Of a DNA stretch of 64,000 nt, positions 28,976-55,942 are shown piece by piece (the stretch's first letter is position 1; each line of letters opens with the position of its first letter). The DNA lies in NCBI GenBank assembly GCA_041615815.1, contig JBFJCP010000002.1, positions 32,001 to 96,000 on the forward strand. The letters run 5' to 3'. The translations under genes were made by a program, and so were the position numbers. This DNA comes from Gemmatimonadales bacterium. GTDB taxonomy: Bacteria > Gemmatimonadota > Gemmatimonadetes > Gemmatimonadales > GWC2-71-9. The notes under the pieces were generated by a model. The model saw nothing but the letters and a program-made list of their open reading frames with translations, was not told the DNA's origin and did not search any database.

Positions 28976-29020
28976 CGGGCGGCGGCCGAATTCGTTCCGG
29001 CTGCCGCCCGATCTTTCTTT
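28976..29020 (+). terminator. Intrinsic terminator
   Basis: CGGGCGGCGGCCG/CGGCTGCCGCCCG stem followed by ATCTTTCTTT. Confidence 0.7.
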
Positions 29021-29526
29021 CAGGCCACGGCGTGCCGCGAAGCCCACCACCTCCACACCATCCAAAGCCCGACGCACGCGAGCGCCATTCCCGCCTGCCA
29101 AAAAATCTCGTGGGCCGGGCCGAACCACACCGACCCGTGCGCCCCCAAGTACATCAGGTGGACGAGCCGCACCGCGTTGATGACCAAGAAGGCCAGCGGA
29201 CAGATCGCGAGCCCAATCCATCGATCCCGGCGTCCCGCTGGGTAGGCGGCGATGGCGGTACCAAGCAGCACGGTGCCGGGCAGCGCCGTGCATCCGCGAG
29301 AGATCTCGATCCCGAAGCCATTGGTGTGAAACACCGCGGTGGCATCACGCACGACGTCCATACCTCCCATCCGGAGCACTCCAACGGTCAGCTGCGCCGT
29401 GAGCGTCCGCACGTGGACGAGCACATCGCCTAATACGGCTTCTCGGAAGCCGACCCAGAGCGCGAGCGCGGCGAGCGCCACCGCCGCGACGAAACGCACG
29501 CGCCAACGCAATGGACCGCGGCCCAT
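29020..29526 (-). CDS. xrtH: Exosortase H-like sorting enzyme
   Basis: Membrane protein with Cys-Arg-His triad pattern FGIEISRGCTAL...INAVRL...AHEIFWQ; adjacent gene has an IPTL-CTERM-like tail. Confidence 0.72.
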   Translation of the reverse strand: MGRGPLRWRVRFVAAVALAALALWVGFREAVLGDVLVHVRTLTAQLTVGVLRMGGMDVVRDATAVFHTNGFGIEISRGCTALPGTVLLGTAIAAYPAGRRDRWIGLAICPLAFLVINAVRLVHLMYLGAHGSVWFGPAHEIFWQAGMALACVGLWMVWRWWASRHAVA

Positions 29527-31352
29527 CACGCCCTCCGCTCGAGGGGCGTGCGGGCCCAGAGCGCGACAGCGACAATGACCGTTGCCACGAGGATGAGGAT
29601 CACCGTCGAAAACGTGGGCACCCGGATTGGGGTGGCCGCGGTCACACCGTTGACCGAGGCAAAGACCGTCGTCTCGCCCCGAGCAACGCCCGTGACGGTG
29701 GCGCTGGCGACCCCCGACCCGTCCGTGACCACTGCCGCGGGAGCCACGGTCGCCAGGCTGGCGTCGTTGGTGGAAAAGTTGACGGTGACCCCGGCTTCCG
29801 GGCTCCCGCCGCGGGTGACCGTTGCGCGGACCGTGGTGGTCTCCCCGATGCCGAGTGCGCGATCGGGGTCCAGCACCGCGGTAATGAACAGCGCGGGTGT
29901 CCCCCGAATGGCGTTGAGCAGACCCGCGCCGCAGAGCTCGGGACACTGGGTGGACGAGCGCGGCAGCGCGTTGGATTGCAATTCGGTGAGGAGCTGCGCG
30001 GGCGTGAGTCCGGGGTCGCTCGCGAGCCAAAGGGCTGCGACTCCCGCGACGTGGGGGGCAGCCATCGATGTCCCATTGAAGTACGCGTAGCCGCCCTGAA
30101 CCATGCTGAGCACGCCGTCGGGATCGCCGTCCAGGTTGTCGTCCCGTTGTACGTCGCCGCCAGGAGCTAAGATCTCAATGGTGGTCCCGAAATTCGAGTA
30201 CCGTGACACGAGACGCCCCCGCGCGTCGCTCGCCGCGACAGTAACGACGTTGTTGCAGCTGGCCGGCATCACCTGCGAGGCGTCTACCGCGTCGTTTCCG
30301 GCGGCCACGACGACGGTGGCGCCGGCATTCACCGCGTCGTTGATCGCGGATTGCGTCGAGGGCGATGCCGAACACGGCACGCCCGGCGGAGTGCCGAGAC
30401 TCATGTTGATGACGCGTGCCGGCGTCGGGTTCAACGGCGCTCCGGCCACTGGTAACCCGGCAGCCCACCGAATGGCATCGTTGATGTCGGCCGTACTTGC
30501 TCCGCACTTCCCGAGCACCCGCACCGGCAACACACCCACGCGCCAGTTCACGCCCGCTACCCCCACGGTGTTGTCGGTGTTGCCGACCCCGACCGTGCCG
30601 GCCACGTGGGTGCCATGCCAGCTGTTGGGCAGGGCCGGGCTCCCCGGAAAGCACTCGCCCGCGGCGGCCGCGTCCCCCGGATCGGTGGGATCGGCATCGC
30701 GGCCATCACCGTCGTTGGCGGTCGACGGATCGCTGATCATATCGAATCCAGAGAGCAGATTGGGCGATCCGGCAATGTCGGGGTGAGCGGGGAGGATCCC
30801 CGTATCCAGGATCGCGATGACGATCCCGCCGTCCCCAGTCCCCGCATCCCACGCCCGGGGGAGGCCGATCCCACCCGGCGATTCGCCGCTGCCCGAACCG
30901 TTATTCAAGTAGTGCCACTGCTGCGCGAATCGAGGGTCGTTGGGTAGGACATCCGGCGCTACCATTGGCCGTGCGAGATAGAGGATGAAATTCGGCTGAG
31001 CGAATTCGACGTCCGGTCGGTTCTGCAAGCGACGCGCCACCGCCCATGTGCTATCTCGGGCCTGTCCGGCGTCATATGTGGCAACGACGGGCGGTGGGAT
31101 CCGGTAGATGTATTCGCCGCCGGCCATGCGCCGTGGAGCCTCCTCGAGCCCATAACTGGCCAGTGTAGCGGCGGACATCGTCATCTGACCAGCCATCTTC
31201 ACGATGATCTCGCCAGGAACGAAGACGGGACGGGCGGGTACGTTTCGCTCGAACAGTGTCTGCACCTGTTGAGGGGTCAATTCCTGCGACGAGACTGGAG
31301 GAACCGTGAGCGTGCTGCCAAGTACGAAGAACCCGATGACGGCGGTTCGCAT
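29526..31352 (-). CDS. S8 subtilase with Ig-like (Big-1-like) domain and IPTL-CTERM-like sorting signal
   Basis: ILDTG, HGTHVAG, AAGN, GTSMAAPHV; ends VPTFSTVILILVATVIVAVALWARTPLERRA. Confidence 0.9.
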   Translation of the reverse strand: MRTAVIGFFVLGSTLTVPPVSSQELTPQQVQTLFERNVPARPVFVPGEIIVKMAGQMTMSAATLASYGLEEAPRRMAGGEYIYRIPPPVVATYDAGQARDSTWAVARRLQNRPDVEFAQPNFILYLARPMVAPDVLPNDPRFAQQWHYLNNGSGSGESPGGIGLPRAWDAGTGDGGIVIAILDTGILPAHPDIAGSPNLLSGFDMISDPSTANDGDGRDADPTDPGDAAAAGECFPGSPALPNSWHGTHVAGTVGVGNTDNTVGVAGVNWRVGVLPVRVLGKCGASTADINDAIRWAAGLPVAGAPLNPTPARVINMSLGTPPGVPCSASPSTQSAINDAVNAGATVVVAAGNDAVDASQVMPASCNNVVTVAASDARGRLVSRYSNFGTTIEILAPGGDVQRDDNLDGDPDGVLSMVQGGYAYFNGTSMAAPHVAGVAALWLASDPGLTPAQLLTELQSNALPRSSTQCPELCGAGLLNAIRGTPALFITAVLDPDRALGIGETTTVRATVTRGGSPEAGVTVNFSTNDASLATVAPAAVVTDGSGVASATVTGVARGETTVFASVNGVTAATPIRVPTFSTVILILVATVIVAVALWARTPLERRA

Positions 31353-38764: not shown

Positions 38765-39469
38765 TCACGGTCTGCGACTGATCACCCAAATATAGGCGGC
38801 GACCGCTTGCACGTCCGCGTCGCTGATGGCCGAACCTCCGCGTGGCGGCATGGCGATGCCGCCGCGCGACCGCTCCGCTGGCACCCCCGTCAAGATCTGC
38901 TGCACAATGGCCAGGTAGCTGCCTTTGGCATGGAGCCATACTTCGTCAGTCAGGTTGGGTCCGACGCGTCCCCGGGCGTCTCCGGCGTGGCAATTGTCGC
39001 ACCCGCCCTTGCCGTGGAAGATCTCTCCGCCCCACTCCACCATGGCCGGCGTGACACCGGGCGGAAAGGAGTCACCGGATTCCGGGTGACTGAGCTTCCA
39101 GACGAACGCCGCCACGGACTGGACTTCATGGTCCGTGAGATTCGCTCCACCTTTGGGCGCCATCGCCACGCCGCTCACTGATTTATTCGAGGGCACCCCC
39201 ACCAAGATCTGGCTCACCACCTCCAGGTAGTTCCCTTTGGCATGCCACCAATTGTCATCCGTGAGGTCGGGACCGAGCGAACCGTGGGCGTCCTCACCGT
39301 GACAGTTGGCACACCCTCCCGCGCCTTCGAAGATCTGTCTTCCATGACGGACCATGTGGGGGGTCACCCCCGGCGGGAGGGAGTCCGGGATGGCGATGTC
39401 CGCTTGTGCAGCCAACGGTGCGGCACTCACCAGCGAGCCGATGACGAGGAGAGTCGAAGTAAGCCTCAT
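38765..39469 (-). CDS. Periplasmic diheme cytochrome c (tandem CcoP-like domains)
   Basis: Signal peptide; CANCH...GPDLTD..W...MAP and CDNCH...GPNLTD..W...MPP. Confidence 0.88.
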   Translation of the reverse strand: MRLTSTLLVIGSLVSAAPLAAQADIAIPDSLPPGVTPHMVRHGRQIFEGAGGCANCHGEDAHGSLGPDLTDDNWWHAKGNYLEVVSQILVGVPSNKSVSGVAMAPKGGANLTDHEVQSVAAFVWKLSHPESGDSFPPGVTPAMVEWGGEIFHGKGGCDNCHAGDARGRVGPNLTDEVWLHAKGSYLAIVQQILTGVPAERSRGGIAMPPRGGSAISDADVQAVAAYIWVISRRP

Positions 39470-39564
39470 CGCAAGCACACCTCAGAGGAAAGAACACCGT
39501 GGTCGCTTCGTTGCCGGCCACAGGGGACGAGTCCGGAAGCACTCATCGGGGCGGGCGTCACGCC

Positions 39565-41517
39565 TCAGAATCGCCGCACCGCCCGAAAGGAAAACCGACT
39601 GACCGCGCCGGCTGTCCCGACGTTTCGACGCTGATGTTCGAACCGAATGATGGTTTCGACCTGCGCAAAGCGCCAGTTGGCCTCGATCAGCCCGCCGAGG
39701 AACCGCTCAAAACCAGCATCCGCGCGCTCGGTGCGCAGACCATCGAGACGCCCATACATCCGCACACCCAGGGGCGTCATCCAGACCACGGACGCGTTGC
39801 CGAACAGCATGGTGACCCGCTGGTCCTCGGACATGGACCGATTCCATCCTCCACCGAGCGACAGCCGCAGCCGCCGAACACTTGGGAGCGTGAGGGTACC
39901 CCGCGCCTCCCACACGGTGTTTCTGAATCGATCGGTGGTGCGCCGACGCCGCTCAGCCGAGATCCTGAGCAACCCCACGGGTGTGGGCTGTGTGCCGTCC
40001 AATTGTGTCACCATCTCGTTGAAATCGGGTATGGTCAGTGCACCGGCCTGGACGTCCGAATCCGTCCCCCGCAGGGACTGGCGGTGACGCAGCGTGAACC
40101 GCGATACGCCCAACGAGACGCTGTAGTTCCCCGTCACCGTGCGATCACGTCGTCGGGTGGCGGCGCGGAAGCGGTAGGTCACGAGCAGGACTTCGCCCAC
40201 CTGGATCCGACTCGTGATGGGCACGATGATGCGGAGGAACCCACCAACCTCCTGTACCTCGTAATCGAGATCCCGTAGGTACACGAGCGTCCCGTCCGCA
40301 CTGCGCACCATCAGGCTCGCTAAATCCACCTCCGGGTTGTCCAATTCGAACAGACGGGTGTCGTCGACGCGATGACGCTCATTCAAGACCGGGATGAAGC
40401 CATCGCCGGTGCCGTCTTCCCGCCGGCGCTCGTATCCCACCGCGACACCCCCACGCAGGCGGACAATTCGCGGCGTGGGGACCGTGAACTGAAGGCTCGG
40501 AATGATGGATCGCACCGATGTGGTGCGATTGATCAGCTCTGACGAGCGTGCGGAGCCTCGCACCGAACCGGACACCCACCGACTGATGCGGTATTCGATC
40601 CCAGCGCCGTAGCTCCTCGTGCTTGCGCGCGTTCCGTTGATTCGAGACGAAAGCACGCGGTACTGATAGTTCGTACCGAGCCAATGAGTGTGCTGCAAAC
40701 GTAAGCGTTCCGACCACGAGACCTGGCGATAGGGCGAAACCCGGCTGTCCCGATCGGTGAATCCGATACTCGACTGGAGAGTGCTTCCTTTGCCCCACCG
40801 AAAGCGATGATCGAACTGACCGTTCCAAGCCACGAAATCGTCGCCGCCCACGATGCCGTCGTAATTCGTTCGTTCGAGTCTCGCCGAGGCCTTGCTACTG
40901 TTGCCTGCGAATCGGAGAGTCCGCACCCGGTACGATCGTTCCACGGGATCCACCAGAGGCGTCGGATTCCACGTTTGGCTCACGGCCCGCCGGGAATACG
41001 AGAGGCGTACGGGAAACGGCCGCCAGCGAATTGACATGTTGGCATCCGTCGTCGTGTTGGTGTAATCCGTGAGGGTGAGCGCCCCGAGCGTCGAGGATCC
41101 GCCGGATCGGGTGGTCGCGAACGATAGCGAGATTGGGCGGCTCGAGAGGAGCCGCGCCGAGAAGTCGAGGTCGAGCGATCGGGAGACGACGGTATTGTCG
41201 AGCTGATTGGAAAGACCCTGGGTCAGGACCGGTCGCAGCGTCAGGCTCCAGGAGAAGGCACGGGTATCGATCAGCGAGCCCGAGAACGGGAGCGTGACCC
41301 ACTCGCGATATCGCTGATCGCTGAGGCCTGCGCGATCGCCGAAGGCCGTTGCCAGGGCACGGACCTCGATCCCCAGTTGGCCGCGACCACCCCCTACCCT
41401 GAGGAGACCTTGCGCCCCTCCTTCCTGCACGGCTCCGGCGATGCCGACTGCAACGCATGCCGCCATCGCCCCTACACGCCGACGGCGGTCACCGCGACGC
41501 GAGCGTATTCGAGACAT
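39565..41517 (-). CDS. Large outer-membrane beta-barrel protein
   Basis: Signal peptide, alternating amphipathic strands, terminal FSFRAVRRF; start uncertain. Confidence 0.7.
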   Translation of the reverse strand: MSRIRSRRGDRRRRVGAMAACVAVGIAGAVQEGGAQGLLRVGGGRGQLGIEVRALATAFGDRAGLSDQRYREWVTLPFSGSLIDTRAFSWSLTLRPVLTQGLSNQLDNTVVSRSLDLDFSARLLSSRPISLSFATTRSGGSSTLGALTLTDYTNTTTDANMSIRWRPFPVRLSYSRRAVSQTWNPTPLVDPVERSYRVRTLRFAGNSSKASARLERTNYDGIVGGDDFVAWNGQFDHRFRWGKGSTLQSSIGFTDRDSRVSPYRQVSWSERLRLQHTHWLGTNYQYRVLSSRINGTRASTRSYGAGIEYRISRWVSGSVRGSARSSELINRTTSVRSIIPSLQFTVPTPRIVRLRGGVAVGYERRREDGTGDGFIPVLNERHRVDDTRLFELDNPEVDLASLMVRSADGTLVYLRDLDYEVQEVGGFLRIIVPITSRIQVGEVLLVTYRFRAATRRRDRTVTGNYSVSLGVSRFTLRHRQSLRGTDSDVQAGALTIPDFNEMVTQLDGTQPTPVGLLRISAERRRRTTDRFRNTVWEARGTLTLPSVRRLRLSLGGGWNRSMSEDQRVTMLFGNASVVWMTPLGVRMYGRLDGLRTERADAGFERFLGGLIEANWRFAQVETIIRFEHQRRNVGTAGAVSRFSFRAVRRF

Positions 41518-42406
41518 GGCATCGCTGGCAATTGCCGAATCCGGCGCGGAAGGCGACGGCCCCATTGTGGCATGCGCCGCACGCCTCTCCAGCGTTGATG
41601 TCCTTCATCAGAATCGCGGTGGCTCCGGCCCGGGGCTCGAAGAGATCCACGTGACATGCTTTGCAGCGAAACCGGACTCGATGCAGCCAGTGTGGGAAGA
41701 TGGCGGGAGGCAGTTCGTCCGTGCGCACTCCGGCGGAGTTGCCGATGGAATCGGAGATCAGGGCAGCCGAGTCGAGGCTCACTCGCCGCATGGTGACGGT
41801 ACCGAGGAGTTCGGGCTGGGCGCGATCCGGAGGCATGGGGAGCGACTGGTGGCAGCGTTCGCAGCCGGAGTTCACCGGATAGGCCACCTTGCCATGGCAC
41901 TCTCCGCAGTACCGTCCCTGGAAGATGTCCGCCATGGATATGTTCGTTCCCCGGTAACGAAAAATGGGCCCGTGACACTGCCGGCAGTCCACCCACTCCG
42001 TGTGTGAGGAGTGCGGGAAGTAGGCATCGAACGTGGAGTCGGGACCTTGCAGGTAGAAGTCGAAGGCGAAGCGGAAGTCGGGCTCCCCCAAATGCCGAGC
42101 CCGGCCCGCAATCGCGGACCGAGGCTTGATTACGCCGTCGCGCAACGCAGCCATCCAATCGATATTGCCGGCGTGGTCGCGAGGCAACATCGCCGTCGCG
42201 CTGTCCGCGTTCAGCGTCCCTTCAATTGGAGGACGAACCGTATCCTCCGACACTACCAGCGGCGAGGCAGCTGGAACTCGAGCGACCGTGGCCGGCCGCT
42301 CCTCTCCCGACTTCGGAGGGATATCGAACACTGTGCCGGCCACCTGCCTGCATCCGATTACGAGCAGACAGACCGCTGCCAAGCGCCATCCCGACCCGCC
42401 CGTCAC
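41489..42406 (-). CDS. Hexaheme c7-type (two triheme domains) cytochrome lipoprotein
   Basis: VIGC lipobox; FPHxxH-CRQCH-M-CGECH-CERCH and FPHxxH-CKACH-M-CGACH-CQRCH. Confidence 0.9.
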   Translation of the reverse strand: MTGGSGWRLAAVCLLVIGCRQVAGTVFDIPPKSGEERPATVARVPAASPLVVSEDTVRPPIEGTLNADSATAMLPRDHAGNIDWMAALRDGVIKPRSAIAGRARHLGEPDFRFAFDFYLQGPDSTFDAYFPHSSHTEWVDCRQCHGPIFRYRGTNISMADIFQGRYCGECHGKVAYPVNSGCERCHQSLPMPPDRAQPELLGTVTMRRVSLDSAALISDSIGNSAGVRTDELPPAIFPHWLHRVRFRCKACHVDLFEPRAGATAILMKDINAGEACGACHNGAVAFRAGFGNCQRCHVSNTLASR

Positions 42407-43098
42407 TTCTGGTGACAGGTCAAGCAGAGCGCGCTACCCGCATTGGACAGACGCAGGAACGGGCGGTTGGCGGCCGTGTGCGGATTATGGCACGTACCGC
42501 ATTGCACCTTGCCGTCCACGTCGAGCACGAGACCCGCCGAGGAGATCGACCCCGCGGAGTTGAACGCTGGGTCCTGCCCCGGGTCATAGAGCACCGAGAC
42601 GGGGTGATCGTCCCGCAAATCCGTACCGAGATTCGTCAACCGGCCGGCTGGCAACGTTGTGCCGACAGCCGCACCGCCGGTATAGGAGTTCGGCGTATTG
42701 GTGATGACATCGAGCCCCACCGTCCCATCATGACAGCTCAGGCAGGCCAGCGAGATCCCGGTGGGCTGTCCATCGACCGTCATGTCGATCGTCGAGCTGT
42801 GGGTCGCGTCGTACATCTGGTACGTGGCAGTCGAAAAACCCCGGTTCCATAGGGGAGCGCTCACATCCCCACCGTGCGGCGTGTGACAGTACACACATAC
42901 CTCGCCATAGTCTTGCAGGGCCCCCGCACCAAACGAGTCTGCCTGGGCCGCGAACGACAGGTTGTGCAGCGTCTCCACCACGGTCGTCCCGTTGGGATAC
43001 GCGCCGGGCGGCGTGACCTGAGCCAGCACGCTCGCGGGAAGTGCGAGCAGCGCCGCGACGGCCAGGCCCACATAGCTTCTCTTCACCCTCATGGTCAT
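42403..43098 (-). CDS. OmcE-like tetraheme cytochrome c
   Basis: 231 aa; HNLS, CVYCHTPH, PLWNR, CLSCHDG, NLGTDLRDDHPV, CGTCHNPH, PFLR...LCLTCHQK. Confidence 0.85.
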   Translation of the reverse strand: MTMRVKRSYVGLAVAALLALPASVLAQVTPPGAYPNGTTVVETLHNLSFAAQADSFGAGALQDYGEVCVYCHTPHGGDVSAPLWNRGFSTATYQMYDATHSSTIDMTVDGQPTGISLACLSCHDGTVGLDVITNTPNSYTGGAAVGTTLPAGRLTNLGTDLRDDHPVSVLYDPGQDPAFNSAGSISSAGLVLDVDGKVQCGTCHNPHTAANRPFLRLSNAGSALCLTCHQK

Positions 43099-43170: not shown

Positions 43171-44403
43171 TCATGGCATGGTTGAACCGACCGGTGGCAA
43201 CAATACCGGCTCGGTAGCGGCGCTCTCCTCGGGCGCCTCCAAATACTCGAAGATCTGTACACGGGCGTTATAGCGGTCTGCGACGTAGATCCGGTCGCTC
43301 GCGTCGATGGCGATACCCATTGGGAGCCAGAATTCCCCCGGTCCGCTCCCAAAGCCGGCAAACCCGATGAGGAGACGCCCCTCCGAATCGAACACCTGCA
43401 CATTGTTGAACGCTGCATCCACCACGTAGACGTGCCCGTTGGAGTCTACGGACAGCCCTTTGGGTCGTGCGAATGCCCCGGGCGTGTCGCCCAGTCTGCC
43501 AAACTGCCGTTGAAACTCGCCCTGCGCATCGAACACCTGAACGCGGAAATTCATCGCGTCACAGACGTACATTGTCCCGTCCGGCGCCACCGCAACCGAT
43601 ACGGGGAAGAGAAACTCGCCCACACCATGGCCTCGGTTCTCCAGCATGTCGCGAGGTCCCGTCCGGAGCCGATGGGACGTGGGCTGCGCGGTCGCCCGAG
43701 CCGCAGCTTGCTGGTCTCTGGCCACGATATCACCCCGATCCCGGCCTACGCGTCGGACCAGGTTTCCATCCTGATCGAAGACCACAATCTGATGGAGGTA
43801 GCTATCGGCCACGTAGATGTGACCCGCGACGGGATCAACCGCCACGTCCACCGGATTCAGCAGAAGGGTCGGCCCGCCGAACGCGCGTACGAATTCCCCC
43901 GTCGGTCCGAACACCACCACGCGGCGACTCGTTGCGTCGGTGACATACACGTGGCCACGGCGATCGCCGCCCAGACCCATCGGTTTGATGAGTCGTCCTT
44001 GACCGGACCCGCCGAACACCTCGGCCTGCTTGGTTGTGTGGTCGAACACGAGAAGTTGACGTGACGTTGCGTCGGTAACGTAGACGCGGGTGCTGTCCTC
44101 AGCGTAGACGTCGGACGGCCGAAGGATGGAGATGTAGGGATCATCCTGAGCTCCCGCCAATGCGCGAGAGACACGGCCAAAGAACGAGGGGCGCTTGCCA
44201 AGGTCTGCTTCGCTGTGCAAGAGACCGAGGTAACGGATTCGTGCCGCTTCCGGCGGCGCCGGCCACACGAGGTCCTCGAGGGGCGCAATGCCGGTCTGGA
44301 CGCCCGCTCCACCACAAGCAGCCACGCCGAGCACCACGAAACCGATGAGACCCGCCAACGCCGCTACGCGCCGCGACATTCGTGTTGCATCGGGGTGGGC
44401 CAT
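43171..44403 (-). CDS. NHL-repeat beta-propeller lipoprotein
   Basis: VAAC lipobox, LVWPAPPEAARIRY, repeated P.G...D..G.VYV.D..N.RVQVF; GGAGG RBS. Confidence 0.9.
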   Translation of the reverse strand: MAHPDATRMSRRVAALAGLIGFVVLGVAACGGAGVQTGIAPLEDLVWPAPPEAARIRYLGLLHSEADLGKRPSFFGRVSRALAGAQDDPYISILRPSDVYAEDSTRVYVTDATSRQLLVFDHTTKQAEVFGGSGQGRLIKPMGLGGDRRGHVYVTDATSRRVVVFGPTGEFVRAFGGPTLLLNPVDVAVDPVAGHIYVADSYLHQIVVFDQDGNLVRRVGRDRGDIVARDQQAAARATAQPTSHRLRTGPRDMLENRGHGVGEFLFPVSVAVAPDGTMYVCDAMNFRVQVFDAQGEFQRQFGRLGDTPGAFARPKGLSVDSNGHVYVVDAAFNNVQVFDSEGRLLIGFAGFGSGPGEFWLPMGIAIDASDRIYVADRYNARVQIFEYLEAPEESAATEPVLLPPVGSTMP

Positions 44404-44411
44404 GTTACCTC

Positions 44412-45167
44412 CTACCAAAAGTGAGCGGTCGTCTCGCCCGGGTCAGCGAGATGACAAGTCGAGCACAGGGCCTGCCCCCCGTTGCTCATTCGCAGGAACG
44501 GTGCAAACTGCTGCGTGTGCGGATCGTGACACGTCCCGCACTGCACCTTGCCGCCGTACAGTCGAAGACCCGCCGCCTCGACCGCGGCCACGGAATTGAA
44601 GTCCGGATCCAATGAGGGGTCGTACAGAATCGAAATGGGATGCTGTGTGCGGAGATCGTCGTCAAACCACACGTTTTCCCAATTGATCCCTCCGTCTGGG
44701 TTACCGCCGGTGTGACAGTCTGTGGCGCAGCGTTCGATCACTTCGCCCAACGGAGTCGTCGCCGTGAACAGGGGCGGCGGGTTCGCGATTTCGTCGAGGC
44801 CGATCGTGCCATCGTGGCACGAGAGACACAGGAGAGACACCTCCGTCGGCTGCGGATCGGCAATCATATCGATCGTATTGCTCTCGTACATTCGATATGG
44901 CGTGGCCGGCAACTGCCGGTTCCACAGGGGGCGATCGGGTCCCCCACCGTGCGGCGTATGGCAGTACACGCACGCACTCCCGTAGTCCAGAAACATCGTG
45001 GACATCGGCGGGACTTGCGCCGTCCGCGCGAGGTTGTGGACCGTCTCCACCACCGTGGTTCCGTTAGGCCATTGCGCTCGGCATGGCCGGACCGCCATCG
45101 ACGCCATGACGACGATCACGGCCGCACCGCCGAGCGTCTTGGCCCACCACGTGCGCGCATACCACAC
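44412..45167 (-). CDS. Second OmcE-like cytochrome c (4 CXXCH plus 1 CX3CH)
   Basis: CVYCHTPH, CLSCHDG, CATDCH, CGTCHDPH, CSTCH; start ambiguous. Confidence 0.83.
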   Translation of the reverse strand: MWYARTWWAKTLGGAAVIVVMASMAVRPCRAQWPNGTTVVETVHNLARTAQVPPMSTMFLDYGSACVYCHTPHGGGPDRPLWNRQLPATPYRMYESNTIDMIADPQPTEVSLLCLSCHDGTIGLDEIANPPPLFTATTPLGEVIERCATDCHTGGNPDGGINWENVWFDDDLRTQHPISILYDPSLDPDFNSVAAVEAAGLRLYGGKVQCGTCHDPHTQQFAPFLRMSNGGQALCSTCHLADPGETTAHFW

Positions 45168-45173
45168 CTCCTA

Positions 45174-45620
45174 TCACGAACCTCCACCAACGGTGATCGT
45201 ACCCTTCATTCCCAACGTCTCGTGGGGCGTGCACACGTACTTGTGCACCCCATCCGTGAAGCGTGCGTCGATGACCACGTCATAGGTTTCGCCGGGTGCC
45301 GTGAGGTACGGTCCCATCTGCCGGTCGCCTAGCTGCGACTCCGCAGGAACCTCGCGGAACTCGACGTTGTGCGGCATGCTTCCCGTCTGTTCGAACCGCA
45401 CGGTATCGCCCGGGTGCACAGTGACGTCGGCAGGCTCGAACCGGTATTCGGTCGTCGAGACATCCACCATCTTCACGACGACGACTTGACCGCGCGAGGT
45501 CGCTGGCTCGCTGACCGACCAACCGGCCAGCAACATGCTCAGAATGCCCGCCGCCGCTGCGCCGGCGAGCACCCGTGATAGGCTTGGCGTTCTGGCAATG
45601 CTCATGAAGCGTCCAGACAT
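45174..45620 (-). CDS. Plastocyanin/azurin family blue copper protein
   Basis: FEPADVTVHPGDTV, PHNV, YVCTPHETLGMKG (H-C-H-M type 1 Cu site). Confidence 0.92.
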   Translation of the reverse strand: MSGRFMSIARTPSLSRVLAGAAAAGILSMLLAGWSVSEPATSRGQVVVVKMVDVSTTEYRFEPADVTVHPGDTVRFEQTGSMPHNVEFREVPAESQLGDRQMGPYLTAPGETYDVVIDARFTDGVHKYVCTPHETLGMKGTITVGGGS

Positions 45621-45876
45621 TGTTGGCTTCCCTCCCCTTCCGTCCGTGTAATGGTCGATGCCAGTCAAGGACGCACAGGTGCAGCAGTCTCCCAGAGACT
45701 CGCCGCTCCAGCATCCACTTGGGTCCACTGCTACCCCACGACGATCGGCATTCGTGACCGCCGCACGTGGGTTTTCAGGCAGGAAGTGGACCGCACTCGG
45801 GCTTGGGAAAAGGTTGAGCTAATCCTCTATGGGACAAAGGCCTACGAAGGGAGGCAGGGCGAAGGTATTCGTGAGT

Positions 45877-45938: not shown

Positions 45939-47372
45939 TCAGAACGCCATATCGAGGCGAAGCCAAACAGCGCGGGGTCGGCGACCGCCGAGAGTGGCGC
46001 TGTGTTGATCCTCAGTAAACAGTTCTGCTTCCAGGACACCCCGTACGTTTTGGCGAATGAGGAAAATCGCGCCCGGCATGATGCGCGTCTGGTCGAATCC
46101 CCCGACCGTGAAACCGTCGGCCCGTATGGACGCAGGAATCTCAGCGGAGAAAGTGTCCACCTTGAAGGAGCCCAACAGCCAGGGAAAGAACAGGTACTCC
46201 CCCTTCACGAAAAAGCTGGAGCTGCCAAGGTCACCATCGGCGTCGGCGCCCCACGGACGGTCGTGCTGTCCCCAGACATGTCCGAAACCGAGATCCACCG
46301 GTCCCCATAGCGCTCGAGCGGCGACGCCGAACGCGCGGTGATCGTCCTGACGATCTCCCGCCGCGGGCTGCGCGCCCAAATACCCGAAGTGTTCGAGCGT
46401 GAGCGATCGGTCCAGGAGTTGGCCACCGCCTCCCAGTAGCGGCCCCGTGTCGCCACGGTACCGACCATCGAGCCCGAGCCCGCCCAGCTTGTAGCGAACC
46501 TTGTAGTAGAAATCTTTCCGTCGATTATTGTCGGCTGTCGTTGCATTCGTGCCTTGGGCGACGCCAACAGCGTACGCCAAACGGCCACTCACCATTCCAT
46601 TCAGCTCGATAGACGGCTGTGACTGCCGCAGCTGGAATTCGTTGATTGATTGCAGGGTCGCGCCGCTGATCGGATCCTCGAGCTCGAGATCGGAGACGCG
46701 GTAGTCCTGCCAACGAAAGTTCTGTCGCGCCGCACGATCGATTTGTCGATCGGCGAACGTGAACAGGTACAAGTTTTGGACACCCACCCAGAGGTTGAGG
46801 GTTCGAGCCGGAAGCCACGGCAAGACATCCTGCACTTCCACCTTGGCCTGGAGAAGCTCGACCCCACCTTCTCGCGACCATTCCGATTCCAAGAACACAC
46901 TGATCTGCTCACCGAGTGTCGTTCCGGCGAGGAGATAGACTTCGTGAGGGAGGCGAAAGTCGAGCCGGGCATCGTCGGTAGCGTCACGAGTGAGCCCTAC
47001 GTCATTCTGGATACGCAAGGCTATCGGTGGCGTACCAGGCAACTCACCCGGCCAAATACCGCGGGGCCAGATGTCTTTCCATTCGTCCGATCCCAACGGC
47101 ACCGGTCGGTCACGGCGAAGCAGCGCGTCGTTGTCGGGAAACCGGTAGCCATTGAGGCGGAACGCTTCACCGAGCACGTTCAGTTTGGGCGCCGCCGTAT
47201 GGCACGTGGTGCAGCTCGTGCGATATTTACGTGCGAACGCGGGGATGCGGTCGCTCGGCTGGCTCACTCGTGGATTCGCCGCGCTCAACGTCACGACTAG
47301 CAGGCCGGCAGTCATGCCCCAAACCGGTACGGACGTGTAACGGGCCGCGCGGTGTGATCGTGATCGATCCAT
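45939..47372 (-). CDS. cyc2: Cyc2-like fused monoheme cytochrome-porin
   Basis: Mature N-terminus IPAFARKYRTSCTTCHTAAPKLNVLGEAFRLNGY, then a beta-barrel ending WLRLDMAF. Confidence 0.75.
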   Translation of the reverse strand: MDRSRSHRAARYTSVPVWGMTAGLLVVTLSAANPRVSQPSDRIPAFARKYRTSCTTCHTAAPKLNVLGEAFRLNGYRFPDNDALLRRDRPVPLGSDEWKDIWPRGIWPGELPGTPPIALRIQNDVGLTRDATDDARLDFRLPHEVYLLAGTTLGEQISVFLESEWSREGGVELLQAKVEVQDVLPWLPARTLNLWVGVQNLYLFTFADRQIDRAARQNFRWQDYRVSDLELEDPISGATLQSINEFQLRQSQPSIELNGMVSGRLAYAVGVAQGTNATTADNNRRKDFYYKVRYKLGGLGLDGRYRGDTGPLLGGGGQLLDRSLTLEHFGYLGAQPAAGDRQDDHRAFGVAARALWGPVDLGFGHVWGQHDRPWGADADGDLGSSSFFVKGEYLFFPWLLGSFKVDTFSAEIPASIRADGFTVGGFDQTRIMPGAIFLIRQNVRGVLEAELFTEDQHSATLGGRRPRAVWLRLDMAF

Positions 47373-47408: not shown

Positions 47409-48005
47409 CTACTTGGGTCTCAAGTCCAGCTGCAAGATCAGGTTACCGTCTCGCGGAACGGAGATCGGCTGTTCGAATGATCGCAGCCGCCGGTGCCACA
47501 CCCGCAGCGTGTAGGCCCCTGGCGGCACACTGTCGATGCGGAACGACCCGTCCGGGGACACGACGGCATGGTGCGGCGTCGGGACCACCAGGACGTGGGC
47601 AACCATCTCGGGGTGGACGTGACAGAGAATCACGTGCGGCCCAATACCCATAAAGCGGTGTGTTCGGGATTGGCTGCGGGGGTACGTGCCGAGATTGAAA
47701 GGGCTAGGAAGGCGGGTCGGGCTGAACACATTGTGCAGCACGGGATCGGAATTCCGAAACTCGACCACGGTTCCCGGGACCACAACCTGGACGGTGGGCC
47801 GGAACCGCAGGCCTCTTTGGTCGATCAAGAGCGGAGTGTCCGGCACCGCATATGTCGTGTCGCGCGCAGCTTCCAAATACACGACAGCATCCGTTACCGG
47901 GACACTCGGCGCCTGCACGATTCCCTCGACCGATCCGAGTCCGCCATCGTTCGGACCCACGGAGACGCACAGGAGCGCTCCGACCGCGACCGCGCGCCTA
48001 CGCAT
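47409..48005 (-). CDS. Cupredoxin-domain protein with carboxypeptidase-regulatory-like C-terminus
   Basis: IDQRGLRFRP, NSDPVLHNV, CHVHPEM, GSFRIDSVPPGAYTLRVWH. Confidence 0.8.
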   Translation of the reverse strand: MRRRAVAVGALLCVSVGPNDGGLGSVEGIVQAPSVPVTDAVVYLEAARDTTYAVPDTPLLIDQRGLRFRPTVQVVVPGTVVEFRNSDPVLHNVFSPTRLPSPFNLGTYPRSQSRTHRFMGIGPHVILCHVHPEMVAHVLVVPTPHHAVVSPDGSFRIDSVPPGAYTLRVWHRRLRSFEQPISVPRDGNLILQLDLRPK

Positions 48006-49395
48006 CGTCGGTTCCTCCACCCTTTCCGTCATCCCCTTCAAGCCAGCGATGGACTGTTCTTCGGCTCACCCCAGCGACTCGCGCGGCCTGCGAGACGTTC
48101 CCACCCGTATGCTCCAGAAGGTGTCGCACGTACCGACCTTGAAAAATCCTCACCGCCTGCGCACGCGCCTCGTCATAGGGACGCGGTGGTGCATCGAGGG
48201 TGTCGGCAAGCATCCGGCTTCCCGGACGAAGGGCTTCCGGGAGATCGGCCAGCGTGATGCGACCGTCACTGTCGAGCACGATGAGCCGCTCAGCGAGATT
48301 GCGAAGCTCACGGACGTTCCCCGGCCAGCGGTGAGCTTCGAGTGCATCCCACACTTCGGGTGATACCAGCGGTGGTTCCTTCCCAAGTTCCGCGGCGGAT
48401 TGGACGAGGAACTTCTGAGCCAACATGACTATATCCCCACCGCGCTCCCTGAGTGGCGGTAGCCGAAGCGGAACGACGTTCAGCCGGTAATAAAGGTCCT
48501 CCCGGAATCGTCCCGCCGCTACCGCTGCCTCAAGGTCGGTGCTGGTGGCGGCGACCAATCGAATATCGATGTCGATCAGAGCCGAACTCCCCAAACGGCG
48601 GATCTCCCGTTCTTCGAGCGCTCGCAGCAGTTTGGATTGGAGACCGAGCGTGAGCTCGGCGAATTCGTCGAGGAAAACGGTTCCACCATTACCCTCTTCC
48701 AACAGACCGGTCTTGCGGCCAACGGCCCCCGTGAACGCTCCACGTTCATACCCGAACAGTTCGCTCTCCATCAGGCCCTCGGGCAAGGCTGCACAATCCA
48801 CCGGGACGAACGGCGATTCCCGCCGGGTACCGTGTGTGTGGAGATAGCGTGCAATCAGTTCCTTCCCCGTGCCACTCTCACCGGATAGCAAGACATTGGC
48901 ATCGGTCGGAGCAACTTTGCGGACCTGATCCATGAGGGTCTGAAATGCTGCGCTCGATCCCACGATCTCATCCACGCGACTGCCCCGTGCTATCTGTTCC
49001 CGCAGAGCGAGGTTTTCGATGGCGAGCCCGCGATGCCGAATGGCCCGCTGGACGGCCACCTCCAACTGATCTCCGGAAAACGGTTTAGTGATGTAGTCGA
49101 AGGCACCCTCGCGTATGGCGGAGACGGCGGATGCCACGGACCCAAACGCCGTCATGATGATGACCGCAACCGTCGGATCGTCCGCCAGGGCAGCGGTCAG
49201 CACCGTCATCCCGTCCACATCGGGCATCCGGAGATCGAGTAGCAGAACATCGGGCTGATAGTCTCGCAACACCTCCCGTACCCGGGCCGCGTCCGAAAGA
49301 GTTCGACACCGGTGCCCGTGACGGGCCAGCAGACGCTCGCAGTTCTCGAGCATCGCGGGCTCATCATCCACGATCAGGACTCGCGCTCGGTCCAT
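47998..49395 (-). CDS. Sigma54-dependent response regulator (NtrC/AtoC family)
   Basis: Receiver; GESGTGKE, ESELFGYERGAFTGA, FREDLYYRLNV, WPGNVREL; Fis-type HTH. Confidence 0.95.
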   Translation of the reverse strand: MDRARVLIVDDEPAMLENCERLLARHGHRCRTLSDAARVREVLRDYQPDVLLLDLRMPDVDGMTVLTAALADDPTVAVIIMTAFGSVASAVSAIREGAFDYITKPFSGDQLEVAVQRAIRHRGLAIENLALREQIARGSRVDEIVGSSAAFQTLMDQVRKVAPTDANVLLSGESGTGKELIARYLHTHGTRRESPFVPVDCAALPEGLMESELFGYERGAFTGAVGRKTGLLEEGNGGTVFLDEFAELTLGLQSKLLRALEEREIRRLGSSALIDIDIRLVAATSTDLEAAVAAGRFREDLYYRLNVVPLRLPPLRERGGDIVMLAQKFLVQSAAELGKEPPLVSPEVWDALEAHRWPGNVRELRNLAERLIVLDSDGRITLADLPEALRPGSRMLADTLDAPPRPYDEARAQAVRIFQGRYVRHLLEHTGGNVSQAARVAGVSRRTVHRWLEGDDGKGGGTDDA

Positions 49396-51689
49396 GCAGT
49401 CTCCTGGAGCGGCAGGGGCAAAGACACCACGAAGCGGGTCCCGCCATGCGCTCGGTCTTCCACCCAAATCTCACCATCATGTCGGTCAATGATGCTCCGA
49501 CAGACGGCGAGCCCCAACCCGGTGCCGCGACCCGAGGTCTTCGTTGTGAAGAATGGCTCAAAAATCCGGTGACGCAGTTCCTCCGGCACGCCGGAACCTG
49601 TGTCATCCACGATGATCTCCACCGCGCTGCGATCGGCTGATCGTCGAATGGTGAGCGTCACCTTGCCGCCCGACGGTGTGGCGTCCGCCGCGTTCAAGAG
49701 CAGGTTGAGGCATACGGTCTCGATCGCGGGCTCACTTCCCGAGACTTGCGGCAGCCCCTCAGCGATCTCGGCATCCAGACCGATGTTTCGAGAGGAAAAC
49801 GTTCGTTCGAGGACACGCGCGAGTCGGGCGGCAACATTATCGAGCGCCACAAGTCCCCATTCGTTGGATTCCTGATTGCGAGCGAGACTCAAGAGATCGC
49901 GCGTGACCTCACCAAGTCTTCCCACATGTTCTCGCAACACCGAAAGATCACGAACCAGGAAATCCCCATCCTCATCCGAGCACCGCTGACGGATCTCATC
50001 TTCCATGCACTCGAGACGGTTTCCGATGACTGCAATCGGGTTGTTGAGCTCGTGCGCAATCCCGGCCGCCATGACACTCACAGCGGCGATCCGCTCCGAA
50101 CGCCGCAAGTGCTCTTCCAGACGCTTCTGATCCCGGGTATCGCGAAGAATAAGAGAGTAACCAAAAGGTTCTCCATCCTGATCGCGAATCAGCGTTTGGG
50201 TCAAGCTCAGTGCGATGCGTTCTCCGTCCTTCGATTTTCTCTCCGTGTTGAGGTTGACCACCGCACCGCGTCGTTCGACCTCACGCGCGATGTACCGTTG
50301 CTCGGCCGACGGACCGCTCGAGAGCAGATCAGCGACGTTTCGGTTCAGCGCTTCGGCGGCCTTGTACCCGAAGAGCTCTTCGGCACCCCGGTTCCACACC
50401 CGAACACGTTGGTCCAAGTCCAGGCCGATGATGGCGTCTGCCGAGCGTTCGAGGATGTGTGACAGTTCCGCGTGCGTTTGGCGAAGCGCCTGCGTGCGCT
50501 CTTCGACCAAGCCCTCCAGGTTCTGCCGATGTGCCGTGAGCTGATCCGCCATGGCAGTGAATTCCGCAGCGAGATCCTCCAGCTCATCGTTGGTCTCGAC
50601 GCGCACCGGGATGGTCAACTGGCCCCGAGCGAGACGTTCGGCGCTGCGGCGCAGCCGATAGATCGGCTCCGTGAATTGGCGCGCACCCACCGTCGCGAGC
50701 CCGATGACCGCCCCTAGCATGATCAGCGCGCCCAGTGATACCCATCGGCGAAAGTCCACCACGGAAGCCTCAAGCTGCGAGAGCGGGACGATCCGATAGA
50801 GCACGGGCGCGGGTGCGCCGGTCGCCGTTGTCCACAGTGGGAGAAACCGAACGATGGCACTGTCAGCAGCTTCGAACGTTCCGCTCGCCCCGGCCCGCAG
50901 TGCACGCGCGATGTCTTCCGAAAGCTCGTCTGCGAGGTCTACCTCGTCTCTTGATGCTAACAGGCTGCCCCAGTCGCGCTTGCGGGACGAGTGATAGAGA
51001 TACAAACCATCTGAGCCGATGAGCCCTGTCGTACCCTGAAGGCTGGGGGAACCGTCTTCGATGCCGTCGAACAGCACTGTCGCATACGCTTCACCCACGA
51101 CCGCGCCGGCCAGTACGCTATCGGGTTCATGAACTGGAACGACCACGGCGATCGCCGGAATCGTAGCCAACGTCGAGTCCGCCTCCACATCGGCGCGCAA
51201 TTCGATGGGCAGAACCAGAGTGCTGCCCGGCCCCAACGCAGCAGCCTGAGCGGCGTAGTAGAATCCGCTCCCATCCCCCTCCGATCCGCCAACACGGCCG
51301 TGGTCTGCGCTTCGCACGAAGCGTAAAACGCCATTTTCGTCGACGACTTTGATCTGGAAGAGCGACGGATGTCCGCCGAGAAACACCTGTAACCAAGCTT
51401 CCGCCATCGCCCACTCCCTCGTCGTGGCACCCATCAGGAGCGGGCGGAACAGGACCGCAGCGAGAAACTCCACATCCCGCTCGACTTGTTGAAGACGCCC
51501 GGCGGTCTGCTGCTGCGCCAATTCGAGATCATGTTCTAGCGTCGTCGTTGCCGTGACGCGTAACTGCCGTGAAAACATCTGGGTGGCGAACAACGCTGCA
51601 CCTGCCAGCGGCACAATCGCCAGGAGCGCGAACGCGATCGCCAGCTTGAGACGGATCGAGAGACGGGGAAAGAGTTTGTTAATATTCAT
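49374..51689 (-). CDS. Sensor histidine kinase (periplasmic sensor, HAMP, PAS, HisKA)
   Basis: Two TMs, HAMP, PAS, AHELNNP, FEPFFTTK, GTGLGL. Confidence 0.93.
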   Translation of the reverse strand: MNINKLFPRLSIRLKLAIAFALLAIVPLAGAALFATQMFSRQLRVTATTTLEHDLELAQQQTAGRLQQVERDVEFLAAVLFRPLLMGATTREWAMAEAWLQVFLGGHPSLFQIKVVDENGVLRFVRSADHGRVGGSEGDGSGFYYAAQAAALGPGSTLVLPIELRADVEADSTLATIPAIAVVVPVHEPDSVLAGAVVGEAYATVLFDGIEDGSPSLQGTTGLIGSDGLYLYHSSRKRDWGSLLASRDEVDLADELSEDIARALRAGASGTFEAADSAIVRFLPLWTTATGAPAPVLYRIVPLSQLEASVVDFRRWVSLGALIMLGAVIGLATVGARQFTEPIYRLRRSAERLARGQLTIPVRVETNDELEDLAAEFTAMADQLTAHRQNLEGLVEERTQALRQTHAELSHILERSADAIIGLDLDQRVRVWNRGAEELFGYKAAEALNRNVADLLSSGPSAEQRYIAREVERRGAVVNLNTERKSKDGERIALSLTQTLIRDQDGEPFGYSLILRDTRDQKRLEEHLRRSERIAAVSVMAAGIAHELNNPIAVIGNRLECMEDEIRQRCSDEDGDFLVRDLSVLREHVGRLGEVTRDLLSLARNQESNEWGLVALDNVAARLARVLERTFSSRNIGLDAEIAEGLPQVSGSEPAIETVCLNLLLNAADATPSGGKVTLTIRRSADRSAVEIIVDDTGSGVPEELRHRIFEPFFTTKTSGRGTGLGLAVCRSIIDRHDGEIWVEDRAHGGTRFVVSLPLPLQETAWTERES

Positions 51690-53707: not shown

Positions 53708-54670
53708 ATGGCGACAACTCGTGGGTTGTGGAGTTTCGCGCAAGCAGTGGCTCTCCTCGCGACCGTCGTCCTGATCGGCGCGCTCCTCGCCGTACCGGAC
53801 ACCGGGCTCAAGATTCTCTGGAACGTGTTGATTCCACTCGTTCCTGCCTCGCTCTTGATCACGCCGCACCTCTGGCGCAATGTCTGCCCGCTGGCAACGC
53901 TCAACAAGCTCGGGAACGGTCCCTGGGCCCGACGCACGCTCACCACGCGTATGGCCGCATTGGCCGGAGTCATCGCCATCGTCCTCCTCTTCGCGATGGT
54001 CCCGGCGCGCCGCTTCCTGTTCAACACCGACGGCGTCGCGCTCGCCGCGACGATCGTCGCTGTGGGCGTGCTCGCCCTCGCTCTGGGCGCCGTGTTCGAC
54101 ATGAAGGCCGGGTTCTGCAACGCGATCTGCCCGGTGCTCCCGGTAGAGCGGCTCTACGGCCAGCGACCGCTTGTCAATCTCGGCAATCCCCGTTGTCCCG
54201 CGTGCACGCACTGTACGCAGACCGGGTGTATCGATCTCAACGCAACGAAGTCCGTGGCCCAAACCCTCGGGCCGGCCCGCCGTTCCAGTGCCTGGCTCAC
54301 CACGGGATTCGGGGCCTTCGCTGCCGCGTTCCCGGGATTCGTCATGGGGTATTATGCAACCCAGGATGTGGCACTGCAGGGTGCGGGGGGTGTTTATCTG
54401 GAGGTGTTCCTGTGGGCGATCGCCAGCTACGTCCTCACGACAGCGATCGTCCGTTTCTGGGACATTCCCGCCACCCGCATGCTCCCGATGCTGGGCGGGG
54501 TCGCAGCAGCCGTGTACTATTGGTTCGCGTCACCTCTGCTCGCCGCAGGGCTCAGCCTCGCACCGCTGGAATGGCCACTCCGCATCGGGTTCTTGAGTCT
54601 CGTGGCCGCGTGGAGTTGGAGGGCGGTGCGGCATCCACCACGCGAAGCTCCGTCGCCGGCCCCATCCTGA
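53708..54670 (+). CDS. Polytopic membrane Fe-S protein (NapH/NosR/RdxA-like motifs)
   Basis: WRNVCP, FCNAICP, CPACTHC-x4-C; multiple TMs. Confidence 0.7.
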   Translation: MATTRGLWSFAQAVALLATVVLIGALLAVPDTGLKILWNVLIPLVPASLLITPHLWRNVCPLATLNKLGNGPWARRTLTTRMAALAGVIAIVLLFAMVPARRFLFNTDGVALAATIVAVGVLALALGAVFDMKAGFCNAICPVLPVERLYGQRPLVNLGNPRCPACTHCTQTGCIDLNATKSVAQTLGPARRSSAWLTTGFGAFAAAFPGFVMGYYATQDVALQGAGGVYLEVFLWAIASYVLTTAIVRFWDIPATRMLPMLGGVAAAVYYWFASPLLAAGLSLAPLEWPLRIGFLSLVAAWSWRAVRHPPREAPSPAPS

Positions 54671-54718: not shown

Positions 54719-55942
54719 TTAGTGCGCGGTCACCGGCTCAGGGACCTTGGGGACGGTGCGCACGAACTGTCCGAAGTGTAGACACTCCTCCAGACGACAG
54801 GACCAGGCGAGCCGACCGTTCCACACGGTCATGTCCGGACACCCGTCGCACATGTTCTGACGCCCATCGGCCAACACGTCGATGGGTTGGATGATCATGA
54901 TAGACTGGAGGTGCAGACGCCGGAATGCGAGACGTGGGTCGACAAGCGCGCGGCGAAATGCCATCCGGATCCCACGGTCCACCGGCCAGAGCCACAACAT
55001 CGAGCGACCGCGCCGGAGCACCGACGGTGGCGAGTACGCGAGGTACCGACCCGTCCGAAGGTGATGCAACGTCTGCGCAAGCTCTACCATCTTGGGGCCG
55101 GCGTAGCCGTAGATCCGACGCGCGGTGCCGATTCGGAGAGACAGGAGCCATTTGAAGGAATCCGGTGTTTCGGTGCCGTTGAGGTAAGCGCAAGGTGAGA
55201 AGTCCGGAAATTCCTCCCGAATCTTCGCCACCACTTCCGGCGCCGTAATGTCGGTCCGCTCGTCTCCCGGCGTGAACCCGTAGGCGAGTGGACCCATGTC
55301 CACTTGCCGGCCACCGGCATAGTACTCGAAGTCCCCCGTTGGAACCGCCGTACGGAAACAGATGAACACCATGACGTGAACGATGTCGATATGTTCTTGT
55401 GCCCACCGTACGAGGTCCGGCACGGCATCGATGGTATCTTCGTAGACCGTCGAGTTGAAGGCACAACCTACTCCCCCCACCCGCGCCACCATCTCCGCGT
55501 AGCGTAACCGCAGGGCGTTGAGCTCCTGCTCGGTCTTCCCTTTCCATTTGGGACGCCCCTGCTTGCTGTCGATGTGAAACGTGAGCCCCACCAGGCCCGC
55601 CGCCTTGAGATCTCGCAACAATTCCTCGTCGAGTGCCAACCCGTTCGTATTGACGATGGGCTTCCATCCCCGCGCCGCCACCATCCGCACGATGTCCACG
55701 ATCTGCGGGTGCGTCAGCGGATCGCCTCCCGCGATGGATACGCCGTCCACCGTGCGCTGCCGCTCGAACACATCGAGGTCCGCCGAGACCGTCTCGAGCG
55801 TTTTGTGCTCGTTCACGTTGGCCCGATAACAGCCGTAACAGGCAAGATTGCATTTGGCTGTCGGCTCGAGCCACCCAATAGCATTGTCCGGCAGGCTCCA
55901 CGGAAGACGGTACAACTCTCGATGATCGAGTGTCACACTCAT
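54719..55942 (-). CDS. Radical SAM protein
   Basis: CNLACYGC, IAGGDP, NTNG; C-terminal CDGC...C...C. Confidence 0.9.
   Translation of the reverse strand: MSVTLDHRELYRLPWSLPDNAIGWLEPTAKCNLACYGCYRANVNEHKTLETVSADLDVFERQRTVDGVSIAGGDPLTHPQIVDIVRMVAARGWKPIVNTNGLALDEELLRDLKAAGLVGLTFHIDSKQGRPKWKGKTEQELNALRLRYAEMVARVGGVGCAFNSTVYEDTIDAVPDLVRWAQEHIDIVHVMVFICFRTAVPTGDFEYYAGGRQVDMGPLAYGFTPGDERTDITAPEVVAKIREEFPDFSPCAYLNGTETPDSFKWLLSLRIGTARRIYGYAGPKMVELAQTLHHLRTGRYLAYSPPSVLRRGRSMLWLWPVDRGIRMAFRRALVDPRLAFRRLHLQSIMIIQPIDVLADGRQNMCDGCPDMTVWNGRLAWSCRLEECLHFGQFVRTVPKVPEPVTAH

Follow-up and report, generated by a model that had tools for sequence, protein, structure and literature searches.

A compact OmcE-type gene cluster of a Gemmatimonadales bacterium encodes a candidate end-piece for cytochrome nanowires

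How filaments of the cytochromes OmcE and OmcS start, stop, and attach is described as an open question in a 2026 structure paper (PMC13712944). In OmcE, one heme of each subunit is ligated by a histidine of the neighboring subunit (PMC9473688, PMC12954529), so that a polymerizing subunit has two ligands per heme and a terminator needs one more. The Discussion of PMC13712944 therefore looks for an anchor in the form of an OmcE-like protein with one surplus histidine, and the available text of that paper names no candidate in the operons for either the anchor or the tip. What cytochrome filaments do physiologically is also under dispute (PMC11077965). A 64-kb stretch of DNA from a Gemmatimonadales bacterium (the window, to which all positions refer) encodes an OmcE-family tetraheme cytochrome, P0001, together with a five-heme paralogue, P0002, and raises the question of whether one could form a wire that the other ends. 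In a literature search that mostly excluded subscription papers, we found no description of a nanowire cap or anchor, no paper naming the inter-subunit histidine of OmcE, and no description of OmcE or nanowires in Gemmatimonadota.

P0001 is encoded on the minus strand at 42403..43098 and was assigned from its translation, alignment with PDB entries, and a family profile. The first-pass annotation of this DNA listed a series of motifs for the gene, all of which are present in order in the 231-residue minus-strand translation of 42403-43098: HNLS (H45), CVYCHTPH (H72, H75), PLWNR, CLSCHDG (H123), NLGTDLRDDHPV (H165), CGTCHNPH (H204, H207), PFLR, and a terminal CLTCHQK (H229), with the C terminus 2 residues past the last heme motif. 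The signal peptide that it claimed can be recognized by eye from a basic n-region, a hydrophobic stretch, and VLA followed by Q. The start is likely Met3 (43092), giving a protein of 229 amino acids, because AAGGAG lies just 5′ of it and the entries in the collection are also 229 amino acids long. No shuffle of P0001 among 100,000 contained at least three CXXCH motifs, and at least four occur in 3 of the 3,148 six-frame ORFs of 200-280 amino acids in the whole genome. A heme-free AlphaFold2 model of P0001 was of low confidence (pLDDT 55.5) and had no Foldseek match.

A phmmer search of the PDB with P0001 returned two OmcE filaments, 7TFS (E 6.7e-30) and 9YUQ (E 1.1e-26), with the remaining seven of nine rows at E 0.56 or worse, and a profile of the P0001 family (116 relatives) had these two entries as its sole matches (E 1.3e-44 and 1.7e-39). 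The OmcE structure was reportedly described by Wang et al. in 2022. Residues 19-231 of 231 align, and the homology proposed in the first-pass annotation is thus not limited to the CXXCH motifs; by eye we count ~84 identities over 213 residues with 7TFS (about 39%), compared with about 41% between 7TFS and 9YUQ. The OmcE motifs that the annotation cites can all be found in the aligned 7TFS chain, and the four distal histidines that it put forward align one to one with those of 7TFS and 9YUQ. All eight heme histidines of P0001 match both filaments and are invariant in 116/116 aligned relatives among the matches listed, while the ninth (H100) is variable (45/116 aligned rows). Because all four distal histidines are conserved, P0001 retains the inter-subunit ligand, whichever of the four it is. 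The 116 rows are P0001 and 115 of the 120 matches listed, with a near-self entry, two three-motif matches, and two five-heme proteins left out, and in all 116 of these rows, as in 7TFS and 9YUQ, the chain stops 2 residues past the final CXXCH. Judged from its sequence, P0001 is a true OmcE relative, like the OmcE proteins of Geobacter sulfurreducens (7TFS) and Desulfuromonas soudanensis (9YUQ; PMC13712944) in length, full-length match, C terminus, and the order of its four CXXCH motifs and four distal histidines. Such homologs are common, with 7,343 of the 8,000 scored candidates in an OmcE-family search passing E 0.001, so that an OmcE homolog is ordinary and P0001 by itself is one more member.

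The surrounding genes run on the minus strand in the order sensor kinase, sigma-54 regulator, cupredoxin-like protein, Cyc2-like cytochrome-porin, plastocyanin-like protein, P0002, NHL propeller, P0001, c7 hexaheme, large barrel, and diheme; the first-pass annotation gave no strand and did not mention the five-heme paralogue or the Cyc2-like and cupredoxin genes upstream. It placed G. sulfurreducens OmcE beside an NHL lipoprotein gene, and P0001 has an NHL gene and a large barrel-type gene among its neighbors. The NHL β-propeller protein (43171..44418, minus strand; PF01436 E 6.9e-33) has a lipobox-like cysteine by eye. The hexaheme cytochrome (41489..42406, minus strand) has two c7 domains with 6 CXXCH motifs and 12 histidines (TIGR04257 E 2.1e-36; 3OV0 E 3.2e-42), also has a lipobox-like cysteine by eye, and its start overlaps the stop of P0001. 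A 72-nt gap precedes P0001, which has a ribosome-binding site to itself, whereas its neighbors overlap. An mRNA-stabilizing hairpin in this NHL-to-P0001 spacer was considered and dropped, as the spacer folds no better than shuffles (z -0.05). The putative large outer-membrane β-barrel (39565..41565, minus strand) is assigned from sequence pattern and conserved position: it is 666 amino acids long from the first ATG, ends in a C-terminal Phe, and has 21 segments of alternating hydrophobicity in a crude scan. A Pfam/NCBIfam scan of the barrel gave no match, and its Atlas lead is Porin_4 (score 0.89, 33% of members). Downstream, a Pfam scan identified a diheme class I cytochrome c (38765..39478, minus strand), whose membership in the cluster is doubtful because no such gene was seen in 20 related loci. 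At the other end are a sigma-54-dependent response regulator (47998..49467, minus strand; Pfam and NCBIfam scans) and a Cache-HAMP-PAS sensor histidine kinase (49374..51689, minus strand; Pfam scan), the latter with a counterpart at the equivalent place in the G196 cluster. Neither a sigma-54 nor a sigma-70 promoter stood above chance, and a Pfam scan of 17 neighboring proteins detected no glycosyltransferase.

A propeller lipoprotein and a large β-barrel nearby serve as the filter for omcE clusters in PMC13712944, and here the NHL protein is assigned by Pfam and the barrel only from its sequence pattern and its conserved position. The minimal omcE cluster of Desulfuromonadia has two β-propeller lipoproteins and two further multiheme cytochromes (PMC13712944); this genome has one NHL protein by BLAST at E <= 1e-6. 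The cluster shares an NHL propeller and a large barrel gene with known OmcE clusters but differs in its single NHL gene, in the absence of a glycosyltransferase among the 17 neighbors scanned, in that its other multihemes are a c7 hexaheme and a histidine-tailed pentaheme paralogue, in the Cyc2-like and cupredoxin genes upstream, and in its Gemmatimonadales host, whose phylum is none of the five that the available text of PMC13712944 lists for OmcE. Of 12 homologs of the genome's ribosomal protein L2 that have a taxon name, 11 belong to Gemmatimonadota, and most of these to Gemmatimonadales. Genes for Ccm heme maturation are present in the genome, and near them two further multiheme clusters, with 8 to 18 CXXCH motifs per frame, occupy ~55700-88600 of contig C20 of the same genome (G000). 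Elsewhere in the window, the product of 29020-31352 (minus strand) looks by eye like a protease of the subtilisin type whose C terminus carries a VPT-plus-transmembrane sorting tail, and its gene adjoins an exosortase-like frame. At 53708-54670 (plus strand), a gene for a membrane protein that has Cys-rich motifs resembling those of ferredoxins, without a Pfam match, converges on a radical SAM gene at 54719-56149 (minus strand). The 64-kb window has no tRNA, and no plasmid match was found.

In a sample of 401 genomes of the phylum, P0001 has matches in 30 at E <= 0.001 and in 23 at E <= 1e-10, its own genome included, with none at the latter threshold in either of the two congeneric genomes (91% and 94% complete). 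We examined the related loci in 20 of the 22 other matching genomes of the phylum, and found an NHL gene in 20/20 and the hexaheme and barrel in 19/20. The available text of PMC13264449 and PMC11495043 does not report OmcE or nanowires in Gemmatimonadota. One locus (L045; G049:C79:66000-85000) holds a second omcE-type cluster that adjoins the first in divergent orientation, with a single NHL plus 14-heme pair common to both.

The gene that sets this cluster apart as a possible source of a filament end is P0002 (44412..45167, minus strand), an OmcE paralogue and candidate end-piece subunit encoded two genes upstream of P0001 and 51% identical to it. P0002 has four CXXCH motifs plus CATDCH (C147-H152, about 44712-44729), a fifth heme motif that sits in the loop after heme 2. 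Its model (pLDDT 86.3) resembles 7TFS (Foldseek E 3.3e-8, TM 0.60; Z 13.3, rmsd 2.9 over 175 residues), which suggests that P0002 adopts the OmcE fold. The protein continues 12 residues beyond the end shared by the aligned tetrahemes and both solved filaments, and this tail includes His249 (44421-44423). Among 113 related rows, 78 have a CXXCH fifth motif and the tail histidine, 29 have CX3CH and the tail histidine, 2 have five motifs with no tail, and 4 are degenerate or fragments. In the 107 tailed rows the histidine is offset from the first cysteine of the last CXXCH by +13 (28), +14 (78), or +15 (1).

A second conserved residue of P0002, Met55 (45003-45005), is found in 105/105 aligned tailed pentahemes among the matches listed. 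This alignment consists of P0002 and 104 of the 120 matches listed, excluding self, fragments, tail-less pentahemes, and tetrahemes, and invariance counts throughout are from alignments purged of tail-less, truncated, and motif-lacking matches. Met55 is also kept in the close tail-less pentahemes P0107, P0206, and P0227, and the tetrahemes have no such column; Met55 therefore follows the fifth heme and not the tail. Met93 and Met101 of P0002 are as conserved as Met55 yet common to the tetrahemes, so a conserved methionine need not bind heme, and the distant tailed forms P0270 and P0285 have no methionine in the Met55 segment. P0002 has 10 invariant histidines and Met55 for 5 hemes, a surplus of one only if Met55 ligates heme. 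Tail-less pentahemes have 10-15 histidines of their own (30 representatives). Two other OmcE-like proteins, P0272 and P0203, have four heme motifs and a tail histidine at about +14, and are literally the ‘nine His, four heme’ form sought as anchor. Five-heme OmcE-like proteins have been proposed as a nanowire family with the extra heme exposed, described as ‘leaky’ (PMC13712944). P0002 is likewise OmcE-sized with one extra heme motif in a loop, and its C-terminal histidine tail, putative Met ligand, and same-operon tetraheme go unmentioned in the available text of that paper.

The tailed pentaheme travels with the tetraheme. It occurs in 8 of 401 genomes of the family, the tetraheme is present in 8/8 of these, and in 7/8 the two lie no more than 2 kb apart on a single contig, the gene in the eighth being at a contig start. 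Among 80 metagenome loci there are five close matches, four with the pair and one too short. An indirect sign comes from contig sizes: for 32/106 tailed proteins the longest contig is equal in size to that of a tetraheme match, and for 28/62 when contigs of 3 kb or more are considered, in both cases among the matches listed. For 31 presumed pairs the distances are correlated (r 0.61; 0/2,000 permutations), with kin not independent, and the co-occurrence counts include kin and are hence non-independent as well. In named Gemmatimonadota, Eisenbacteria, and Caldilineae MAG entries, the accessions of the pair are 1, 2, and 3 apart.

From these observations we propose a model for the cluster. It is quite probable that P0001 is exported, has its hemes attached, and stacks head to tail, with one histidine of each subunit ligating the open heme of its neighbor, the NHL lipoprotein and the barrel serving as a platform for assembly and exit, and the c7 hexaheme as a periplasmic link. 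If filaments form, we see about an even chance that P0002 is a minor end-piece subunit. Whereas P0001 has 8 ligands for 4 hemes, ligation of the fifth P0002 heme by His152 and Met55 would leave P0002 with 11 ligands for 5 hemes. P0002 could then still donate a histidine to a P0001 subunit while the tail residue His249 closes or blocks the heme-4 end of P0002 itself, so that filament growth would stop there; the fifth heme would be an electron entry or exit port, and the end could be either tip or base. The weak step is the ligand map of P0002, which we infer from conservation. Taken as a whole, the explanation with P0001 as filament wire and P0002 as end-piece falls a little short of an even chance. 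P0002 would share the fold and a candidate surplus ligand with the hypothetical OmcE anchor or terminator and tip (PMC13712944, Dsoud_2415), and it has an extra heme, as is suggested there for the tip. It differs from the hypothetical anchor in lying inside the cluster, in traveling with the major subunit, and in having five hemes and not four.

A competing explanation, which we consider rather unlikely, makes P0002 a second polymerizing subunit, mixed along the P0001 wire or forming its own, with an exposed heme ligated by His152 and either His249 or Met55 that would make the wire ‘leaky’ like OmcZ. Counting histidines alone gives 10 for 5 hemes, exactly 2n, and the proposal of five-heme OmcE-like proteins as nanowires (PMC13712944) points the same way. 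A tail-less pentaheme (7731-8447 of locus L040, genome G322) is also the only short-ended OmcE-type subunit in its cluster, which has a heptaheme as well, and is a candidate for a stand-alone ‘leaky’ wire. Another relevant case is the osc cluster of G. sulfurreducens, said to be the subject of Shen et al. in 2025. OmcS clusters hold paralogues too (omcT, oscC), and the osc cluster likewise has a nanowire gene, paralogues, and assembly genes in one operon, but its subunit belongs to another family, the hexaheme OmcS, and it is likened here by description only (PMC13194489). Against polymerization of P0002, the 12-residue tail extends the very end at which 116/116 tetrahemes among the matches listed and both solved filaments stop, the tailed form was never found without a tetraheme in the 8/8 genomes, and Met55 provides a ligand that is independent of the tail.

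It is unlikely, in our view, that no long filament forms and that P0001 and P0002 instead make a short oligomer that works with the hexaheme and barrel, either as a conduit of the porin-cytochrome type or to store electrons at the surface. The compact cluster does lack the second NHL and the long multihemes of larger clusters, short chains would be favored by having a self-closing paralogue in the operon if the two are expressed at similar levels, and filaments are proven only in Desulfuromonadia (PMC13712944). However, P0001 retains the features of a filament subunit at ~39% identity, close to the 41% between the solved filaments, and its own ribosome-binding site after the 72-nt gap sets it apart from its overlapping neighbors. 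We give very little weight to the idea that the cluster is an island that arrived horizontally, is dispensable today, and does nothing for its present host: the distribution is patchy (23/401 phylum genomes at E <= 1e-10, and neither congener), but all frames are intact, every ligand is kept, and GC is 61-64%, compared with 64.2% for the genome, with GC3 of 0.66-0.79.

Clusters that lack the tailed pentaheme have a hepta- or dodecaheme that starts with an OmcE module and then has a histidine at the same offset, +14 in 42/49 dodecahemes. Under a strict pattern, 17/20 phylum loci combine a short-ended subunit with an OmcE-module protein that has a histidine at +13/+14, the partners being 4 tailed pentahemes, 2 dodecahemes, and 11 heptahemes; L052 (+14) and L053 (+12) are looser fits, and L043 comes from a contig of 7.7 kb that ends early. 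No dodecaheme match was found in the four other tailed-form genomes searched. The best 150 representatives comprise 61 short-ended tetrahemes, 30 short-ended pentahemes, 5 short proteins with the tail histidine, 26 extended multihemes (18 at +14), 1 other, and 27 unparsed. In 13 heptahemes there are 13 aligned histidines and two of variable position, 15 for 7 hemes, and 40 dodecahemes have 28 conserved histidines for their 12 motifs, a count at odds with 2n+1. In these larger proteins the +14 histidine may be a ligand of the next heme in the chain. A quick tree of 107 modules with a midpoint root groups the tailed clade (SH-aLRT 100) with tail-less pentahemes (99) inside the local tetraheme clade (97), apart from the dodecahemes. 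Because the tailed pentahemes nest among tetrahemes, the offset that they have in common with dodecahemes is convergent or coincidental. The same nesting (SH-aLRT 100, 99, 97) led us to reject P0002 as a truncated dodecaheme, and on the simplest reading its history would be a duplication, then gain of the fifth heme, and then of the tail.

The upstream genes bear on the direction in which electrons might flow. Cyc2 is defined by PXFAR[QK][TY], CXXCH, PXL, and a length over 365 amino acids (10.1101/228056). The Cyc2-like fused monoheme cytochrome-porin at 45939-47372 (minus strand) has PAFARKY, CTTCH, and PKL in order in 477 amino acids, as in that definition, but with the first Ala of the consensus replaced (10.1101/228056). 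The Cyc2 motif pattern matches nothing else in the genome; the protein has no Pfam or PDB match, and its Atlas neighbors with Porin_O_P score 0.97 (20% of members) and 0.87 (93%). The gene lies downstream of the sigma-54 two-component system and between two cupredoxins. One is a plastocyanin/halocyanin-like blue-copper protein (45174..45728, minus strand; PF00127 E 4e-19) with a complete type-1 Cu ligand pattern (HNV ... CTPHETLGM), and the other is a second cupredoxin-like secreted protein (47409..48041, minus strand; HNV ... CHVHPEM) with a carboxypeptidase-regulatory-like domain. We saw a Cyc2-like gene within the cluster in only three loci, namely the window, L034 (6066-7622), and L065 (841-2316), and in L065 the Cyc2-like module precedes an OmcE cluster with a dodecaheme in place of P0002. 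A plastocyanin-like gene is present in 4/4 phylum loci with the tailed form and 0/16 other loci. Hemes with His/Met ligation usually have a high potential. The Cyc2-like porin-cytochrome and two blue-copper proteins upstream, as identified from sequence, hint at electron uptake. In that case, Fe(II), minerals, or partner cells would supply electrons that pass along the OmcE filament to a His/Met high-potential heme of P0002, and from there through the blue-copper carriers to oxygen respiration, with the Cyc2-like porin-cytochrome acting alongside this inward wire under the same two-component system. The function of Cyc2 cluster 3 is described as uncertain (10.1101/228056). We regard as distinctly unlikely the full combination in which P0002 is the first identifiable nanowire cap or anchor, a rule of a surplus histidine in cis holds for omcE clusters, and the wire runs inward.

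These results extend OmcE clusters to Gemmatimonadota, as well as to named Eisenbacteria and Rhodothermales MAGs, and the addition of another phylum to the hosts of OmcE is modest news. The Cyc2-like and cupredoxin neighbors raise the possibility of a nanowire for electron uptake, and the same end role as for P0002 is predicted for the OmcE-headed hepta- and dodecahemes of larger clusters. The cluster supplies a specific candidate for the missing end-piece of a nanowire, and its compact set of six genes, with a short conserved paralogue that may carry a surplus ligand, makes the question of how these filaments end testable.
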